A stretch of DNA of 64,000 nt from Podarcis vaucheri (Eukaryota): assembly GCA_965113315.1 (NCBI GenBank), contig OZ220372.1, one strand, 5' to 3'. Position 1 is the stretch's first letter, and each line of letters begins with the position of its first letter. The position numbers were made by a program, and so were the translations under genes. Positions 18,461-54,205 of the stretch are shown piece after piece. A model generated the notes under the pieces. The model was not told the origin of the DNA. It did no database searches and worked only from the letters and a program-made list of their open reading frames with translations.

Positions 18461-18876
18461 AATGATGGAGGCTTCAAATTACAATGGGGGCAGGGCTTTG
18501 CTTTTGGATCCTAAGTTTTTTTTTTTCCCCTGGGTCCCGTGGATGCCTTCGGCCTCAGTTTCCCCATCTGCAAAACCAGAACAACACAGTCTCGTTTGCA
18601 GTGCCGGATTTATGCATTAGCTGAAGAAGCTATTCAAGTTCTTGAAACATTTCATTCCAAATTTGCTAAACAGAGCCAGACAGAGGATGATGGCAGGTGG
18701 GTGTCCTTCTGCCCCCAACACAAATCAAACCAAATTGTAAATTATACTAAATTGTACAGAACACCCTCTGGACACAGTAATGTTTTCTGAAATGCCACCA
18801 CAGCTCACTAGTCTAATTTTTGGTCCACCAGCTGCTGATTTCATAGATAAATGTAACATCACTGAATTATCATATG

Positions 18877-43203: not shown

Positions 43204-43239
<36 letters not shown>

Positions 43240-43241
<2 letters not shown>

Positions 43242-43412
43242 TTTCGTAGATTTTCACGGGTATAGGAATGCAGGTTTTGGTGTCTTCGGGTGTCTTCCCG
43301 TGTAAGAGTCGGGGTGTCTGTGCGACGAGAGGATCTCTGAGACCTCGTCGAAACGTCGCACAGACACCCCGACTCTTACACGGGAAGACACCCGAAGACA
43401 CCAAAACCTGCA
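43240..43412. mobile_element. Penelope-like element terminal fragment in inverted-repeat form, within (TA)n
   Basis: 60-bp perfect inverted arms (43268-43327 and 43354-43413); same sequence as the 48700-50004 elements; (TA)n on both sides. Confidence 0.8.
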
Positions 43413-46400
43413 TATATATATATATATATATATATCCCCTCTAACTAGTTTACTAAGGGTGCTGGGAATTGTAGCTCAGTGAGAGATCCTCTCAGCATCC
43501 TTAACAAACTACATTTTTCAGAATTCTTTGGGGTGAAGCCATGGCTATTAAAGCAGCATGGTACTGCTTAGTAGCTGTCTTTTATCAGCAAGACCCATCT
43601 TGACTTGATTAGATATCTAAGAACCACTAAAATGTAATAAGGAAATTCAACTCTTTAACAAAATTGCTGCAGCTATAAACTTATTGCCTCCCAGAATGAA
43701 CATTATTTTTCTCTGGGGAGTGACAGAACCTCACCCCTCAAGAGAGCCACCAATCAACTGTGGGATGTTGCAGGGTTTTTCCTTTGATAAATGCACATCA
43801 TGAAACAGTGAGGCCCAGGGTGTTGGCTCTCAAGGTTCAGAGAAGTGTTTGAACTTTTTATTTACCCACCTGCACATTTAAAAGTGAAAGGTCAAATCTT
43901 TGCTGGTATTTTTTTAAAAAACAAAAATGCACAAAAATGAATCCTGCTTCATGGCAGCGCATTGGTTTAAATGGCATTTTGAAACTCTTCCCATCTCCTT
44001 TGTGTCTAAAATTGTAGAAAACCATTCTGATAGGTCCCCCCCCCATTTTACCTGTGATGATAAAAATCTGATGATAAAATCACCTCACTCCGATTCATGG
44101 TCCTGGAATTCCACGAAATGGATTGCACAGCCTTCATTTCTTCTGAATCACAGACACATGTCGAGTCATGAAATGGCAGGACTTTGGGAGCAGACAGGTT
44201 TAGAAATAAGTCATGTCTGGACAGAGATACCTCTGAAATATTCTCCTCAATTTCTTTTTTGACTTCGGTGAGAAATCTCACAGCCACAACATTCTTCACT
44301 TGCAGCAAAGTTGTGCAACTCCCATGGGATCTGTCCTTCATGCCCTGACAAGGACCAACTGCGTATTCTTTGGAGAAGACCCCCAGGAATTGGTTTCCCC
44401 TGGGACAGTATGTCCTGGGGAAAACCATATAATTAATTGGGTGATTTGGATTGGCAGTGGAAAACGGTCCATTTGGGGGAATGGAAGATAGGGATTTTCT
44501 TGGTCAGATCTTCCAGTTAAACTAACAGTAAAAGGGAATAGCTTTATTTATTTTGAAGTGATGTAAATTGGACTCCCAGTAAGTCCCTTCAGTTGCCTGC
44601 GTCCCAGAAATGCACAACATTTCCTGTGCCTCCCCCCACCCCGCCACTCCTTATATCAGGTGACTAATTCTGGAACATTGCTAAATGAACTACACCAGGT
44701 ACCGGGTATATATTTCTGTTTACTATTTGCAATAAAAGTCTCAGAGGATTCTCTCTCTCTCTTTGAAAACAAAAACGAAAAACCCATCATACTGGAAGTA
44801 CATGTGAATCAGCCCACAGAAATAGATTGCCGTTGTGCATTGATGGACTCTGAGGGTTGATTTGAATTTATGATTGGGGCTACCAGTGTAAACATGAGCA
44901 AATAGTTCAATATTAAGGGCACAAACACTTTAACGATTATATTTAGTAGCCCCTGTTTTCAGAGAGGGGCCATAGATATGTTAGAGTTCATCTTTTGTCT
45001 GCAGAAGATTCAGCACCTGCCATATCCTGTTAAACATAACTCTGAGAGCAGGTATGGCTGAATCTGTCGATTCTGATTTCTCTCTCTCTCTCATTTTTCT
45101 ATTCTTAAATTCAGTTGTTCACATTTCCATATCAGTTCATTAATCCCCCTTTCACTAGCATTTCAGTGAAAATTTCTCCAAAATTATACATGTTTATATG
45201 CAATTTTGCTTAATATATAGGGGTTGGGTTTTTTTTGCAAAGTAATTTCATCTAATATAATGCATTTTTGTTTTCAGTATTATATGCATTTTTAAGCACA
45301 CTTTACTCCAGTATATGAGTTTTGGAACACATTACTTGGCTGGAGAAGTGCACTTCAAAATTCGGAGAAGTGCAAATTTTGAAGGTGGCTGTGTTTCAGT
45401 TTTCAGGTTGTGTTGGAAAGTGCGATTGAGGCCGATTTGCCTTTGGATGCAAATCCCTCTCCTGATCTGACATCCTGGAGAGTTGCAGCTTGGCAGAGGA
45501 GACAGTACAAAGCAAGATGAACAAAAAAAAAAGTCTGACGTGGTAGGCGGCAGCTTCTTAAGTTCTTGGCATATCAACAAGTTCACACAACCACTTTTTA
45601 GCACCTGTGTGTGGGACGTATGTAAGGTTTAAGCAGTTTACCAAGCACTTTCTTGCACTCCAAAACATTGCACCATGCTGCAGTCAAGTGACTAAATTAT
45701 GACAACAATCCGCACAATCAGAGATCAACATCTGAAGGGTGGAGGCTCATTATGAATGAGCAGGTTCTCCACTACTCGCAGGGAAACAATTCTCTGCTAT
45801 TGTGCCTTTTGTGCCATTGTGCTCTTAACACTTAGCTCTTTGTTAATTGTTGCACACGAAAGGAAGCCTTGGAGTAGGTTTGAGTAGTTGCATAAGAGAA
45901 GCGAAAGTTGTTTAATAGGCTAGTAAGAGGGTGCAGAGACCTTTCATCCGGATTGTATTTTGCAAGAGTCTGGGTGATGAAACCGTATAGACGCAAGTGA
46001 ACCTGGAAAATGAGAACTCTGTTAATGATTTATGAATGAAGCATACGTTGTACTACCTTGGGAGTATTTGCAAAACGGTTACAGTCCACAAAGCTAGAAA
46101 GGAATGTTTGTTTTATTTACTCATTGAAAACCAGTGTTTAATTTCTAAGACGAGAGATGTTGGGGCTCAAGCACAACTAGAAATAAATGGTGTCTACCTA
46201 CTTAACTGCAAATTACAGGGGCTGGTTGCAGCTGCTTGATGGCAAGACACTTTGCATATGCTCAAAATCACACCTATTGCATAGATACCAGGACTCAGTC
46301 GTAGAATTGTTAACTCACAAGTCTTTGGGTTCAGCTTAAGACTTGATTCAAGACAGTTGTTTTCAGTTAGATATTATCTTGATTTTTAGTTTAGGATTCA

Positions 46401-46696
46401 TTCAGTGTAACTAAGCGAACATATTTAGTTTTCCTATTAGGCTCTGTCTGCACAGGACTCTGTCTTTGTAAAAAATGCCAGTGTACTTATTGAGGAATGT
46501 AAAACCATGAAGTTCACTAGAGCATGGGATAGTCATTGTTTGTTGTTGTTGTTGTGAGGCTACAATCAGGAGGGGGAGGAACCATCTATGCCACCTTGAG
46601 TTCCTTGAAGGAAAGGCAGGGTATAAATGCAATAGTAAGGTGTGTGTGTGTGTATCCTTTGATATATCCCTAATTTCCCCCCTATATTTAAATGGC

Positions 46697-46786
46697 TGTT
46701 GTTGTTGTTGTTTAGTCGTTTAGTCGCGTCCGACTCTTCGTGACCCCATGGACCAGGACCAGAGCTTGCCAGGCACTCCTGTCTTC
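46697..46786 (-). mobile_element. Very short BovB 3' end
   Basis: (GTT)n-TAGTCGTTTAGTCGCGTCCGACTCTTCGTGACCCCATGGAC. Confidence 0.85.
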
Positions 46787-47035
46787 AGGAGTGATTTAAA
46801 TGATTACTTAGGTTTTTTTCTTTGGAAATGATCTGCTAAAGGAAGAAATCCTTGGCAGCCTTACTCTGGAGTAAGTTCCACTGAGTTGAATAGAGCTTAC
46901 GTCTGAGTAAATGTGCTTTGAAGTTGCAGGCAGCTTCAGTATTTTTCGTGACAAGAATGATTAGGAAATGGAAAGTATGTAAATATAGGACTTTTTATGA
47001 GCATGGTTTAAAAAGCACAGTTCAATCTTGCAACA

Positions 47036-47650
47036 ACAACAACATTATTTGTACCTCGCCCATCTGACTGGGTTGCCCCAGCCACTCTGGGCGGCTTCCA
47101 ACAAATATAAAATCATAAGCAAACATTAAAAACTTCCCCATACAGTGCTGCCTTCAGATGTCTTCTAAAAGTTGTCTTCTAAAAGTTGTCTTCTAAAAGT
47201 TGTCTAGTTACAGGAGGGCATTCCACAGGGGGTGTACCACTGCTGAGAAGGCCCTGTAACCACACTTAGCACAATGAGGGAACCGCCAGAAGGCCCTCGG
47301 AGCTAGACCTCAGTGCCTGGGCTGAACAATGGGGCTGGAGACACTCCTTCAGGTATACCGGGCCACAGGAGTGCCAGCTTGGCTCTGTGACTATGGGTGC
47401 CCAGCGCTGTGGGTGACATGCAGCGTGCATGGCCTTGGTGCTGAAAAATATTGGTGCCTGGCCTCTTCATGGGGAATTTTGTGGGTGCTCAGGCACCTGG
47501 GCCCCCAGGGAGCTGACACCTATGCCAGGCCAAGGCTGTTTAGGGAGGTCAGCACCAACAATTTGAACTGTGCTCGGAAATGTACTGGGAGCCAATGCAG
47601 ATCCTTTAGGACCACTCCCAGTCACCAGTCTAGCTGCCGCACTGTGGATT
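47036..47650 (-). mobile_element. L2-clade LINE 3' fragment with nested hAT-like MITE (47366-47524) and a 14-bp triplication
   Basis: L2 3' end motif; GTCTTCTAAAAGTT x3 at ~47160-47201; MITE flanked by CC(G/A)GGCCA. Confidence 0.75.
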
Positions 47651-48651
47651 AGTTATAGCAATTATTTTATCCTTGACTCTCATCAGTATTGAATTTGTCT
47701 GTATCATACCCTAAAGACAAAGCTTGTGATGACCTTGGCTCTGAAGACTTTGATGCTTGTTTCTCCTATGTAAGTGGAACTTCCTGACCTTGGCCGTGAC
47801 CCAAAAAGCCTCTCCATGCCTTGTTTCCTCCTCAGACTCCTTTGTTCACTCCCTAATTCTGCACAAGCTTATCCATTGTTGCCTTTGTTTGCTTCCTTTC
47901 CCCACTCTTGCATCTGTGCTTTCTGCCATGCAGCACACTCCTGTGTGGGGCCCTGCTGGGCTGACACAGCCTACCACCAATGCAAGCGCAGCCAGCCTAA
48001 GTCCCAGCAAACCCCGGGGATACCTGGGAACCATGAGATCACATGACCCAGTGGCCCTCCAGCAGCCACGGCTGTGCAGCTGATTGGAGCTGGGAGGTAG
48101 AACAGAGAAGCTGTCTGATGCCAAGTCAGACTAATACACAGCATTACATGGTGGAACAGGCCAATAGTCCATCTAGTCCGTGGTCCTGTTCTCCAAGCGA
48201 AATACATAAACCCATACAATGAAGGGGAATGGCCTCGTGCCATTTAAAAGATGGTGCAGGAGAGGGATGCCAGCAAACTCTCCCACCTCCTGACTGCGAT
48301 ATTTTCCATGGCTCCCCACTTTTCATTTTGAAATTCTAACTTGCCGCATGTCGAGAGGCAATTTACATTCTGTGAAGCCACCAAGAATAAATCCAAAAAC
48401 GCATTATAAACAAAAATGTTTTTTAAAAAATGCCCCATAATTTAATTGCAGCCTTTGAAATTGAACTTGGCAACTTACAGTGCTAATGGGGGAAAACCAA
48501 CAACAGGCTGGCTTAGGCTGTGGTGTGTCCCCAGGGAAATAAGAAAGCTTTGCTCAATTAATTGAATAACCTACATAACATTGTTCTGCATTGTATTGCT
48601 TGGGTTGATTGTTTTAATAATTGGTTGTTTTGGAGTGCTTGTATTATTGCA

Positions 48652-48702
<51 letters not shown>

Positions 48703-48753
48703 GGTTTTGGTGTCTTCGGGTGTCTTCCCGTGTAAGAGTCGGGGTGTCTGTGC

Positions 48754-48787
48754 GACGTTTCGACGAGGTCTCACTCGCCATCTTCAG
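48754..48787 (-). ncRNA. Minimal hammerhead ribozyme core (PLE type), antisense copy
   Basis: CUGAAGA-U-GGCGAG(UGAGAC)CUCGUC-GAAAC-GUC; the A>G change keeps stem II paired as G-U. Confidence 0.6.
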
Positions 48788-49177
48788 GCTGGTGCTTTCG
48801 GCTTCTTGTTACTGGAACAGAGCAGAGTCTGGTGTTTGAGTTCCTATAAATACTGTTGAGGGGTGTGGTGTATAGCCTCCAACGTTCTGGGCAGAGAGGA
48901 AGTTCCTAGATTAGTGTGCCTTTTCTTCTTTTGTTCCTTAATTACTTGAGGGATATCTTGGGTGATTTCATGAGTGAATTCAGAATATCACTCATGAAAT
49001 CACCCAAGATATCCCTCAAGTAATTAAGGAACAAAAGAAGAAAAGGCACACTAATCTAGGAACTTCCTCTCTGCCCAGAACGTTGGAGGCTATACACCAC
49101 ACCCCTCAACAGTATTTATAGGAACTCAAACACCAGACTCTGCTCTGTTCCAGTAACAAGAAGCCGAAAGCACCAGC

Positions 49178-49211
49178 CTGAAGATGACGAGTGAGACCTC
49201 GTCGAAACGTC
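49178..49211 (+). ncRNA. Minimal hammerhead ribozyme core (PLE type)
   Basis: CUGAAGA-U-GACGAG(UGAGAC)CUCGUC-GAAAC-GUC. Confidence 0.65.
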
Positions 49212-49919
49212 GCACAGACACCCCGACTCTTACACGGGAAGACACCCGAAGACACCAAAACCTTCATTCCTGTACCCGTGAAAATCTACGAAAGCAAATA
49301 TATATATTTGCTTTCGTAGATTTTCACGGGTACAGGAATGCAGGTTTTGGTGTCTTCGGGTGTCTTCTGGAAATTAGCCCTCCCCACAAAAACCGACACC
49401 AGAACCAGAGGCACACAGAACGCCGTCACCAATCAACCACACCAGACCCAAACCCAGACCCTCTCCACAGACATATTACAGACTCCATCCAGTAGCCAAA
49501 CTATAGTGGCACCTCCGGATGCTGCACCCCCCTGCAATCCCTACACAGATCTGGCTGGCACAAGGCACAAAATCACAGCTCGCCCCTATACACGAAGCCA
49601 AGCCAGAGCACAACTAAATGCAGCACAGCCATCTTCTCAGAAAAACTCTTCACAAGCTCAAGAGGTCAAGACACGAAAGCTTTAGCAACTAATCTACACT
49701 TAATGACCCACCCAGTGGTATTCAGAATACCACTCATGAAATCACTCAAGATATCCCTCAAGTAATTAAGGAACAAAAGAAGAAAAGGCACACTAATCTA
49801 GGAACTTCCTCTCTGCCCAGAACGTTGGAAGCTATACACCACACCCCTCAACAGTATTTATAGGAACTCAAACACCAGATTCTGCTCTGTTCCAGTAACA
49901 AGAAGCCGAAAGCACCAGC

Positions 49920-49953
49920 CTGAAGATGACGAGTGAGACCTCGTCGAAACGTC
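49920..49953 (+). ncRNA. Minimal hammerhead ribozyme core (PLE type), second tandem copy
   Basis: Identical core to 49178-49211. Confidence 0.65.
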
Positions 49954-50599
49954 GCCCAGACACCCCGACTCTTACACGGGAAGACACCCGAAGACACCAA
50001 AACCATATATATATATATATATATATGGTTAGCTATTTGGGAGTTCCCTCTTTCTAAATCTCAGAGGCTTAGAAAAAAAAAACCAGTGCCAGGATGGTAG
50101 ACCACCTGGGAAGGTGTATAGCGTAGGAAAGGACAAGTCATGGCCCTTGTGGTCTATTCCAACTCTATGATTCTGTGATTCTATGATTCTATCTATCTTC
50201 AGGTGTTTCCTGCTTGGCAGGGGGTTGGACTCGATGGCCCTTGTGGTCTATTCCAACTCTGTGATTCATATATTGGATGTTGGCTGGGAAAGACACAGAT
50301 TTAGTTGAATTTCCCTCTTTCTGTTCTGCTCTATGACTTATGTTGGTGATAATCACACACACACATACACATGAATATTAGATAGAAACCAGTAAGTGAG
50401 GGGCAAATGGGTTTCATCAATGTGGGAAGATAGCTCATTTATTGTAATTTTACTGGTGTTAGCTACCCTGAGCCTGGCTCTGGCTGGGGAGGGCGGGGTA
50501 TAAATAAAATTTATTATTACTATTATTATTATTATTATTATCTATGAGAAGGAAAATTCTGGTCCTAAACCTCCACTGCATTGTGGGATATCTTCAGGT

Positions 50600-50856
50600 G
50601 AAGAAGAAGAAGAAGAAGAGTTTGGATTTGATATCCCGCCTTTCACTCCCCTTCAGGAGTCTCAAAGCGGCTAACATTCTCCTTTCCCTTCCTCCCCCAC
50701 AACAAACACTCTGTGAGGTGAGTGGGGCTGAGAGACTTCAAAGAAGTGTGACTGGCCCGAGGTCACCCAGCAGCTGCATGTGGAGGAGCGGAGACTCGAA
50801 CCCGGTTCCCCAGATTACAAGACTACCGCTCTTAACCACTACACCACACTGGCTCT
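50600..50856 (-). mobile_element. tRNA-derived squamate SINE (Squam3-like) with (CTT)n tail
   Basis: Minus-strand head GCCAGTGTGGTGTAGTGGTTAAGAGC...GGTTCGAGTC (A and B boxes); (GAA)n on the plus strand at its 3' end. Confidence 0.8.
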
Positions 50857-51564
50857 CACCACACTGAAGAGAAGAAAAGGCTAGAGTAAACTCTACATAA
50901 ATCCAGAATGGAGTTCCTAACTGGGGTGGATTTAGCGGAACATGACCCTTTCCATCACACTGAGCACACAGCAAGGGAAGCCACAGCTATGATGTTGAAT
51001 GGGAGGGAAGAAGTGGGTGGGGGCTGTCACCAAATTTTGGTGTCACACAGGGCACCACTGAAATTTGAGACACCAAGGTCTGTCACTGTCTCTAAGATGG
51101 TGGAATGGCACCTTATATGCCTCCTTTTGGCTACTCCTGCAGCGAAGCTGGTATCAAACATATTGCTCTGCTTTCCTTTGGACCACACCAATGAAGCCAA
51201 GAGGCAGATCTTGTCGTCTGGGCAACCCAGGACCTGCATACACTCTGCCCAGGCTTGCGCCCCATGGAGGCCACTCTGGAGATGCCAATGCAGTGGTTTA
51301 ACTTCACCCCCAGAGGTACACTTCATGGTCTCTTGAGACAGACAGATGCCAATAACAGACAGACATGACCTCCGTTGTCTTGTTGCTGCCTATTGAAGAG
51401 TTTTGCCTTTCAACAAGCCTTTTGAGCTCTGATATTTTCAGAGAAAAACCGTATTTAATTTTGCTTGTGTAGAAAGTGGACAGTATTTGGCCCTTCTCCT
51501 ACAAACATTTGTACATGCTTCAACCTAGACTTGTATGTGGTAGGTAAGGAGATCGAAGTGTTAT

Positions 51565-51886
51565 GTTGTTGTTTAGTCGTTTAGTCGTGTCCGACTCTTC
51601 GTGACCCCATGGACCAGAGCACGCCAGGCACTCCTGTCTTCCACTGCCTCCCACAGTTTGGTCCAACTCATGCTGGTAGCTTCGAGAACACTGTCCAACC
51701 ATCTCATCCTCTGTCCTCTTCTCCTTGTGCCCTCCATCTTTCCCAATATCAGGGTCTTTTCCAGGGAGTCTTCTCTTCTCATGGCCAAAGTACTGGAGCC
51801 TCAGCTTCACGATCTGTCCTTCTAGTGAGCACTCAGGGCTGATTTCCTTAAGAATGGATAGGTTTGATCTTCTTGCAGTCCATGGG
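51565..51886 (-). mobile_element. BovB LINE 3' fragment
   Basis: RREDSLEKTLILGKMEGTRRRG...AWRALVHGVTKSRTRLND; TSD AAGTGTTAT. Confidence 0.92.
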
Positions 51887-54205
51887 TGCAGTCAAAGTGT
51901 TATACATTTGCTAAATCAATGCTTTTATGGATCAAAAGCCACATGCCCTGGCAGAGCTTGCCCGCCTTGTATTTTCTTTCATGCTCAAGAAATGTATTGG
52001 AAAGTTTGCTTAAATCCTTCAAGAACAACACCCCTGAAGGACTGTGATGTTTGGCCCTTGACATGTTTCTGGAGTCCTGGAGGAAGCTAGCTTTGGCCTC
52101 CTCTCCCATTCTTTGCCTGCAGAGCATGTGCTATGACAACAGTTGCATGCCTCTGAGATATCCATAACTCTCAGGCCATGGAAATAGATAGTTTAATTTT
52201 GATAGGCAATGAGAATGTTTGTTTGATCTCCTTTAATTTGCATCAGTCAGTCAGAGCCAAGTTACGCTCCATGGGAACAGGATTCATCATGCATTTGGGA
52301 GAAGGATTTACTGGATTCATTTCTAACGAAACTGGATTTGCTCTATCCTTTGATATCTCACTGTTTGAGGTGTAGGCACACATGTGAGTCCATGTGCATG
52401 CTTTCGGGTTCTGCTATGTAATCAGAGCAGAGATATTCTACCCTCCCCCTGCAAAAATCAAAATCAAAAATACATTGCTTGCTTTATTTTCTACTAAACA
52501 TTATTTTGTATATTGTTTTGGATTATTTCAAGGGTTTGACTGGGTGGGAAGAAAGGCAACAAGAGAATTTAAGATAGTGTTAGACTACTGTGAAAATGGC
52601 ATGCCTTTGCAGACATTCCTCTAAGACAGTTATGGGCAACGTGTGGCTCTTATTATGCTGTTGGACTGCAACTCTTGGGATCCCTGACCATTGTCCATAC
52701 TGGCAGTGGGGGATGGGGGTTGCAATCCAACAACATGGGGGGGTCTACAGGTTCCCCATCCAGGTCCTAATCTGCTGGGCCAGTTACCCAATGACTTGAT
52801 ATGACTACATCACGTCTCCAACAACAAATGATGTAGTCTGGAGAAATGCAAGTCGCGATGATGTCAGGACATGGGGTAAGCAATCCTACATATTTTTTTT
52901 AAAAAAAGTGGTTTTCCAGAGTTTCAATACATACATATTCTACATATTTGCCCCATCTATTCCCTTTGGGCTTCACAACCCACTCCGCCGTGGCCTCCTA
53001 TTTTTCCTTTTTATGCTGCGTATCCTCAACAACAAATTACCACCTGTTATCATTCTGTTGATTATCCTGGTTTGTAACTACTCTGCTTATACGTCAATTC
53101 CTACTTGTAGATTCATTTGGTTATTATGCCTCCCTTAGCTGTGTTTCTCCCTGGTCTCTAATTTTGGTTGTCATGCTGGCCAATTCTATGTACATAGAAG
53201 CGATCCTACATTTTATGGTGTGTGTGTGTGTGTTCACGATGGAATCTTTTAATATATGACATCTCACTTCAAACCAACTTAAATGAAGCCCCATATAGTG
53301 ACTGAAAACACTCCCCTGGAAAATTGTCCTTCACATTGTCCATATGTCATTTGAGAGTTCCAGCTGAAGAGCCAAATGCTTGAATTCCAGCATACGGATT
53401 GAGCCTATCAGACCATAGTGATTATAATAGTATCTATTTTGAGTGATGACATAGCTGCAGCGATGCTCTGAATAGGGGCAGAGCAGGATAATGGGAATAT
53501 GCCATATTCCTTTCCCTCTCCTGAATGAGTTGACCTGTAAGCAACACTCTCCACAGTCAATCTTGCAGGCAGCTCAGTGTTCATCTCCCCCTTGTTGAAC
53601 CTTTTTGTAAGTTGGATGAGTCACGTTTTTTGCAGGGTTAAGCAGAGGCCTCTGGAATCTTATTGGCTCTTGAAGGGGAGGGGAGGAAATTGGGCGGGCT
53701 CTGAGCAATGATCGTCATTAAGTGTTTGGACATGTTGACAGGGGATGTGGGAAATTGTGACAAGCTGAGCAGAGCTCAACCTGATAGGTAGAAGTAGTAT
53801 TATCCAGGTGGGCAAATTGCCCACAGATGCCCCAGACAAGTGGAGGAGTCTTGTAGCTTTCGGAGGGGGAGGGGTAGATCTGTGTGTACAATCCCTGGAA
53901 CATAAAATTGCATGTGGAGTGGACAAAACCAGAGTGATAATAACCACTAGTTTAGACAGTTTTAAAGAAGGACTATAGAAATTAATGGAGGGTGGATTTA
54001 TGAATGACTACTGTATTGTAGAAGTTCAGTGTTCAGAGCTGGGCACATATCTCTGAGTAATAGAGGGGACAGACATCAGGAAAGCCAGTATGAGGCTGCC
54101 TTCATGCCCTGCTTATGAGTTTTCCACAGACATTTATTTGGTTACTTTTGGAAACAATGCTGAATGTTTAATGCTGATGCCTATCATCTTGATTCACCAA
54201 GTCAG

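Follow-up and report, generated by a model that had tools for sequence, protein, structure and literature searches.

Does the stretch of lizard DNA analyzed here, a window of 64,000 nucleotides from Podarcis vaucheri, contain a retrozyme-like unit bracketed by two hammerhead ribozymes, or are these ribozyme motifs only what an ordinary mobile element leaves behind? Based on a pattern search, we recovered three hammerhead cores at the positions and on the strands already reported in an earlier note on this DNA, together with the cuts predicted after 49211 and 49953 and the spacing of 742 nt between them:

48754..48787, minus strand: hammerhead core A; its helix II has a G-U wobble created by a private A>G
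49178..49211, plus strand: hammerhead core B, predicted cut after 49211; holds the start codon of the element at 49184
49920..49953, plus strand: hammerhead core C, predicted cut after 49953; pLTR haplotype unlike that of core B

A loose core pattern matched the window four times, at cores A, B and C and at 18621, compared to 1.13 matches expected, and four or more were found in 2 of 100 shuffles. Each of the three cores sits in its own copy of a 280-nt block, and the three copies are 98–99% identical. Each has a helix II of 6 bp preceded by a bulged U, a helix I of 2 bp and a helix III stub consisting of a self-complementary 4-nt palindrome without a loop, and a single core is therefore unable to close helix III. 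The core boxes, the bulged base before helix II, the G10.1-C11.1 pair and the palindromic stub are the features given for minimal type I hammerheads in PMC4209133, and the cores lie in the pLTR of an element encoding RT and GIY-YIG. The initial assignment to Penelope pLTR hammerheads of the minimal type I, foldable only as dimers, is upheld. An Rfam search of positions 46000–53000 gave 39 matches at E ≤ 10 with no hammerhead model among them; the miRNA matches were discarded as perfect palindromes.

In order to place these cores in their family, we searched the whole 1.61-Gb genome with the exact 31-nt core and obtained 11,236 copies, against none for the reversed control pattern. In one natural copy (L054), two cores lie at a distance of 2,961 nt, and an ORF of 906 aa begins at an ATG inside the first of them. 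This ORF matches RVT_1 (E 6.7e-15, 55.8 bits) and, towards its C-terminus, GIY-YIG (E 0.0011), the latter with a visible motif and a score of 19.7 that stays below the Pfam cut-off of 22.6. A single ORF that combines RT with a GIY-YIG domain at its C-terminus, allowing for this sub-threshold score, is a hallmark of EN+ Penelope-like elements, as are the inverted 5' copy, the one-sided tail and the AT-rich target, all of which were found here. When the translation was read by eye, an extra Zn-finger-like motif was not seen in the linker of the L054 ORF, which by the criterion of PMC8557442 points, at the level of sequence, to the Penelope/Poseidon clade.

Further statistics are based on 81 merged segments (344 kb, 118 loci) containing 229 cores and 270 arms; the loci were chosen by pattern matches, lie mostly on two contigs and do not represent a random sample. 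Helix I measures 2 bp in 220 of the 229 cores, 3 bp in two and 0–1 bp in seven, and the ORF-intact copy L054 has the same helix I flanks as the window cores. The short helix I, which had raised the worry of decay, is therefore native to the family. A lengthening of helix I through splicing was also considered, and two AG sites upstream of the core, viewed by eye, offered no better pairing. The A>G change in core A does preserve pairing, as had been noticed before, by turning an A-U into a G-U pair; it is, however, private to the window (1/229 cores), so it is no covariation and is uninformative on selection. No compensatory pair was present among the 229 cores of this family, which is about 99% identical and was aligned in a single species.

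With the ATG as +1, the 3' ends of the arms fall mostly on two positions, +84 (128 of 270 arms) and +118 (113 arms), and an AT repeat follows 230 of them. Where two arms stand head to head, their outward-facing 3' ends combine one long (+118) and one short (+84) end in 92 of 102 pairs (p 9e-18; 105 pairs were counted and three dropped for odd ends). Among these long/short inserts, the longer arm is the short-end arm in 41 cases and the long-end arm in 19, with 22 equal and 10 censored; that either arm is able to be longer fits twin priming better than a simple fold-back. Element position -225 forms the exact end of 11 of the 270 arms, with a second start site, a splice point or a subfamily break as candidates.

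Applied to the window, the same piece map resolves the cluster as follows:

48654..48699, no strand: (AT)n target microsatellite, left flank
48698..48977, minus strand: inverted arm of insert 1, pLTR from the short 3' end (+84) back to about -196
48978..49301, plus strand: direct arm of insert 1, pLTR starting at -205 and reaching the long, tailed 3' end (+118); a single difference relative to the natural reference copy
49113..49120, plus strand: TATA-like box of the pLTR; transcription start likely at about 49142 (-41), a position with 640 cDNA 5' ends genome-wide
49212..49953, plus strand: 742-nt "unit", consisting of the insert 1 tail, (AT)5, the inverted tail of insert 2 and its ORF/pLTR arm; single copy
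49298..49307, no strand: (AT)5 target remnant between the inserts, long tail facing long tail; 124 such junctions genome-wide
49304..49367, minus strand: inverted arm of insert 2, from +118, the long 3' end, back as far as +55; without a core
49366..50004, plus strand: direct arm of insert 2, from element position +2402 through the ORF stop (49685) and the pLTR to the short 3' end (+79); 8 differences from the reference copy
49366..49685, plus strand: final ~106 codons of the RT-GIY-YIG ORF, which follow the GIY-YIG domain
50005..50026, no strand: (AT)n target microsatellite, right flank

The cluster thus comprises two 5'-truncated inserts that stand back to back with (AT)5 between them, each with one long and one short 3' end; the two arms of insert 2 are joined by a 2-nt overlap. 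This map matches the caveat of the earlier note that the tandem may simply be two adjacent insertions. It also changes the meaning of the "retrozyme-like unit" proposed there, since the 742-nt stretch is a single-copy chimera that spans both inserts, contains target DNA and an internal inversion, and carries 106 codons of the ORF. Its internal junction (49366–49367) occurs once in 1.61 Gb with one mismatch allowed, and the direct repeat within it covers only 285 nt. Among 75 same-strand core pairs, the spacing ranges from 119 to 2,961 nt and 742 occurs once, with no mode there; 21 of these pairs lack an opposite core in between. Measured against non-LTR retrozymes, we found no head-to-tail repeat with a hammerhead per unit (285 of 742 nt repeated, in two inserts) and no amplification of the unit as a family. 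Nor is the stretch non-coding: the ~106 ORF codons are coding debris, incapable of making protein. These results indicate that the 742-nt stretch is not a retrozyme family; it likely arose by chance when two copies landed next to each other, and not as a circular-RNA element.

Allelic differences agree with this division. The +31 allele is common to both arms in 89 of 95 pairs within an insert, compared to 32 of 52 pairs separated by an (AT)n junction (p 2e-6). At +31, and at four more pLTR sites upstream, core B differs from core C. Stacking as such is common: at a spacer of ≤ 30 nt, we counted 124 tail-to-tail junctions of the long-long type seen in the window, 332 mixed and 92 short-short ones, that is, at least 548 stacked junctions of this kind. 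Taken together, the cluster is a real and ordinary feature: two stacked inserts that carry Penelope pLTR hammerheads and work as any truncated Penelope insertion does. Very probably, its four pieces come from a young Penelope-like retrotransposon and were likely brought by two separate insertions into one (AT)n tract, with cores that are simply the standard motif of the family's end repeat. The two inserts probably arose independently and in succession; neither an allele with the empty site nor one with a single insert was seen.

A different history, in which the whole cluster was written at once, either through template jumping among several RNAs or because a stacked cluster transcribed elsewhere was copied again, appears very unlikely. 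Each half of the window cluster has its own pair of long and short ends and terminates in (AT)n, the haplotype is not the same in the two halves, and no source locus with this junction is present in the assembly. Genome-wide, however, mixed long-short junctions exceed the random expectation (332 vs. 273, p 4e-7), and some clusters may be single events or local duplications; palindromic junctions may also be under-assembled.

One such compound does exist in this genome. A copy of the same family (L055:5834–8723; G000:C1, about 1583830–1586720) shows ADAR-type hyper-editing fixed in the genome, with the hyper-edited compound at L055 6123–8400, the one place among 148 loci scanned. It carries 61 A>G changes in a plus-strand pLTR piece and 72 in the inverted arm that follows, without gaps; all changes are A>G on one strand and include the (AT)n spacer. 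At the edited sites, a 5' G is depleted both in the inverted arm (10/72 vs. 47/86, p 7e-8) and in the plus piece (4/61 vs. 24/52, p 2e-6), the preference of ADAR described in PMC4365171. An enrichment of 3' G is present in the plus piece (17/61 vs. 7/52) and absent in the inverted arm (21/72 vs. 36/86). The two arms of this copy have 66 differences in common, out of 68 and 71, and since both carry the same edits, both descend from one RNA molecule. Likely, transcription of a stacked cluster ran across the cluster's (AT)n junction, and the resulting RNA was edited in double-stranded form, copied through two cores and re-inserted. The source locus was not found in the assembly, in which only the two arms of the copy itself match. 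Our literature search for A-to-G edited retrotransposon copies fixed in genomes returned none for Penelope, although this search was thin and is no proof of absence.

The hyper-edited copy keeps the birth of a retrozyme possible in principle, yet it shows such RNAs edited and copied uncut. That stacked Penelope inserts serve as a nursery of retrozymes, with this locus transcribed from the pLTR of insert 1, cut at both cores with the help of the element's protein and the 742-nt circle copied again, is in our view distinctly improbable. If it were true, the hundreds of chance pairs and the one re-inserted edited cluster would mean that retrozyme birth is in progress in this genome. We regard as highly doubtful that the locus is itself a nascent retrozyme, in which the insert 1 promoter would drive an RNA through cores B and C and their dimer would release a 742-nt RNA that circularizes. 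Containing the +84/+118 start region, this RNA would be open to re-copying. Part of the evidence suits such an origin. A transcript starting at about 49142 skips the inverted arm with core A and meets no opposite-strand core between B and C, and helix II forms in both of its cores, with minimum pair probabilities of 0.71 and 0.62. Moreover, Xenopus retrozymes derive from pLTRs, with family lengths up to 972 bp (10.64898/2026.07.22.740005), and the hyper-edited copy indicates that another stacked cluster was transcribed and re-inserted.

The predicted folds, in contrast, speak against it. If the read-through plus-strand transcript with dimerizing cores that the earlier note had envisaged started upstream of the cluster, core B would be buried in a 280-bp duplex with the inverted arm, and the predicted dimer fold costs +73 kcal/mol. 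For the transcript from the pLTR start, the active dimer lies 15.7–15.8 kcal/mol above the free fold; among 14 other natural core pairs the cost ranges from 11.9 to 85.2 kcal/mol and is lower than that of the window pair in eight, with energies that ignore tertiary contacts and protein and a comparison made without a known active dimer as control. The unit is also single copy, part of it is ORF sequence, and an internal palindrome of 130 nt covers its start region. Previous studies point in the same direction: minimal hammerheads show low cleavage even as dimers (PMC4209133), one of nine predicted Xenopus dimers was cleaved in vitro (10.64898/2026.07.22.740005), and in Poseidon of Anolis cleavage was seen only with protein and was dispensable for insertion (PMC11167929). 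The back-junction from 49953 to 49212, put forward as a test for a circular RNA, is non-diagnostic, since its flanks are 98% direct repeats and the resulting T/A allele pair is found in 32 of 132 genomic cores. Finally, an assembly artefact caused by palindromic repeats has next to no probability, because the pieces carry distinct alleles, their ends obey the rule of the family and dozens of loci repeat this anatomy, even though the region is full of near-perfect inverted repeats and no public contig spans the whole stretch.

Under the two-insertion reading, the protein of the element would nick both strands of AT-rich DNA, and two cDNAs would be primed on the element RNA at the +84 and +118 start sites, as the Poseidon protein of Anolis does in vitro (PMC11167929). 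Both cDNAs would halt early and be joined in head-to-head orientation; (AT)n remaining at the edge of the insert would then be targeted again, giving rise to the second insert. The 742-nt spacing would simply add up the tail of insert 1 and the lengths to which insert 2 was truncated. Cleavage by the cores would be weak, restricted to dimers and probably dependent on help from protein; most templates would have been copied uncut.

The positions of cDNA ends bear on the last step. Of the 270 arms, 251 pass through the cut site and none ends there, whereas 40 have their ends between -41 and -36, some 30 nt below the TATA-like box. Genome-wide, the 640 cDNA 5' ends at -41 compare with 79 at the cut site and 13 at a control site (+35). 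Many of the -41 ends are symmetric head-to-head joins, and position -41 (49142 and 49884 in the window) is likely the transcription start of the pLTR. Of the 79 cut-site ends, 24 belong to 12 symmetric joins located at a GC dinucleotide; joins of this type are also found at -41 and -13. Among the first 100 of 433 ends listed between +13 and +36, a tally by eye, with the first 30 checked by script and 5/100 dropped as indels or duplications, placed 9/95 at the cut site (+29) and 13/95 at +33. The 79 ends at the cut site against 13 at the control may leave room for some cleavage in vivo. Two arms of one cluster elsewhere (L138 and L139; G000:C1 70424272 and 70425277) lack 3 nt directly after the predicted cut site, a loss that may reflect either cleavage followed by religation or mere chance.

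Among known systems, a close parallel is Poseidon of Anolis carolinensis (PAc; Frangieh et al. 2024, PMC11167929), in which, as here, the ORF begins at stem II of the hammerhead (28 nt between ATG and cut in the Podarcis vaucheri family, 26 in Poseidon), two adjacent reverse-transcription start sites define the tail (+84 and +118 in the Podarcis vaucheri family) and targets are AT-rich; both strands are cut and extended and uncut RNA is the main template, as would also hold here. The family of the window differs from it in being a separate sequence family with a 2-bp helix I and a strong tendency to stack in (AT)n microsatellites. Its core boxes, unpaired base before helix II, G10.1-C11.1 pair, palindromic 15.2-16.2 and long helix II are those of Penelope pLTR minimal hammerheads, many copies of which are likewise single or on opposite strands 100–700 bp apart. 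The 2-bp helix I resembles that of a Drosophila virilis variant rather than the 4–5 bp of Schistosoma, and no loop 3 is present here (PMC4209133). With animal non-LTR retrozymes (PMC7229834; 10.64898/2026.07.22.740005), the window shares two direct type I cores a few hundred bases apart and a pLTR origin, whereas the stretch between its cores is unrepeated, single copy, partly coding, inverted inside and interrupted by target DNA. Typical EN+ Penelope inserts have 5' truncation, an inverted 5' copy, microsatellite or AT-rich targets and a 30–40-nt tail, often at one end only (PMC8557442, including the legend of its Fig. 2; PMC3846280). Here the pairing of one long with one short end is quantified (92/102), and either arm may be the longer one.

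The locus itself carries little weight, since stacked inserts of this known type of element number in the hundreds. More can be learned from the family, which is young and has more than 11,000 near-identical hammerheads; its inserts record their own making, with two fixed 3' starts, one per arm, 5' ends where transcription likely starts and few ends where the ribozyme would cut. This record bears on a question named as open in PMC8557442 and PMC11167929, the role of Penelope hammerheads and the origin of the inverted ends, and the hyper-edited copy adds a molecular barcode that links both arms to one RNA molecule. The window also holds a second, small head-to-head insert of the same Penelope-like family in (AT)n at 43214–43433, with a minus arm from +118 to +25 and a plus arm from +9 to +84, neither of which includes a whole core.
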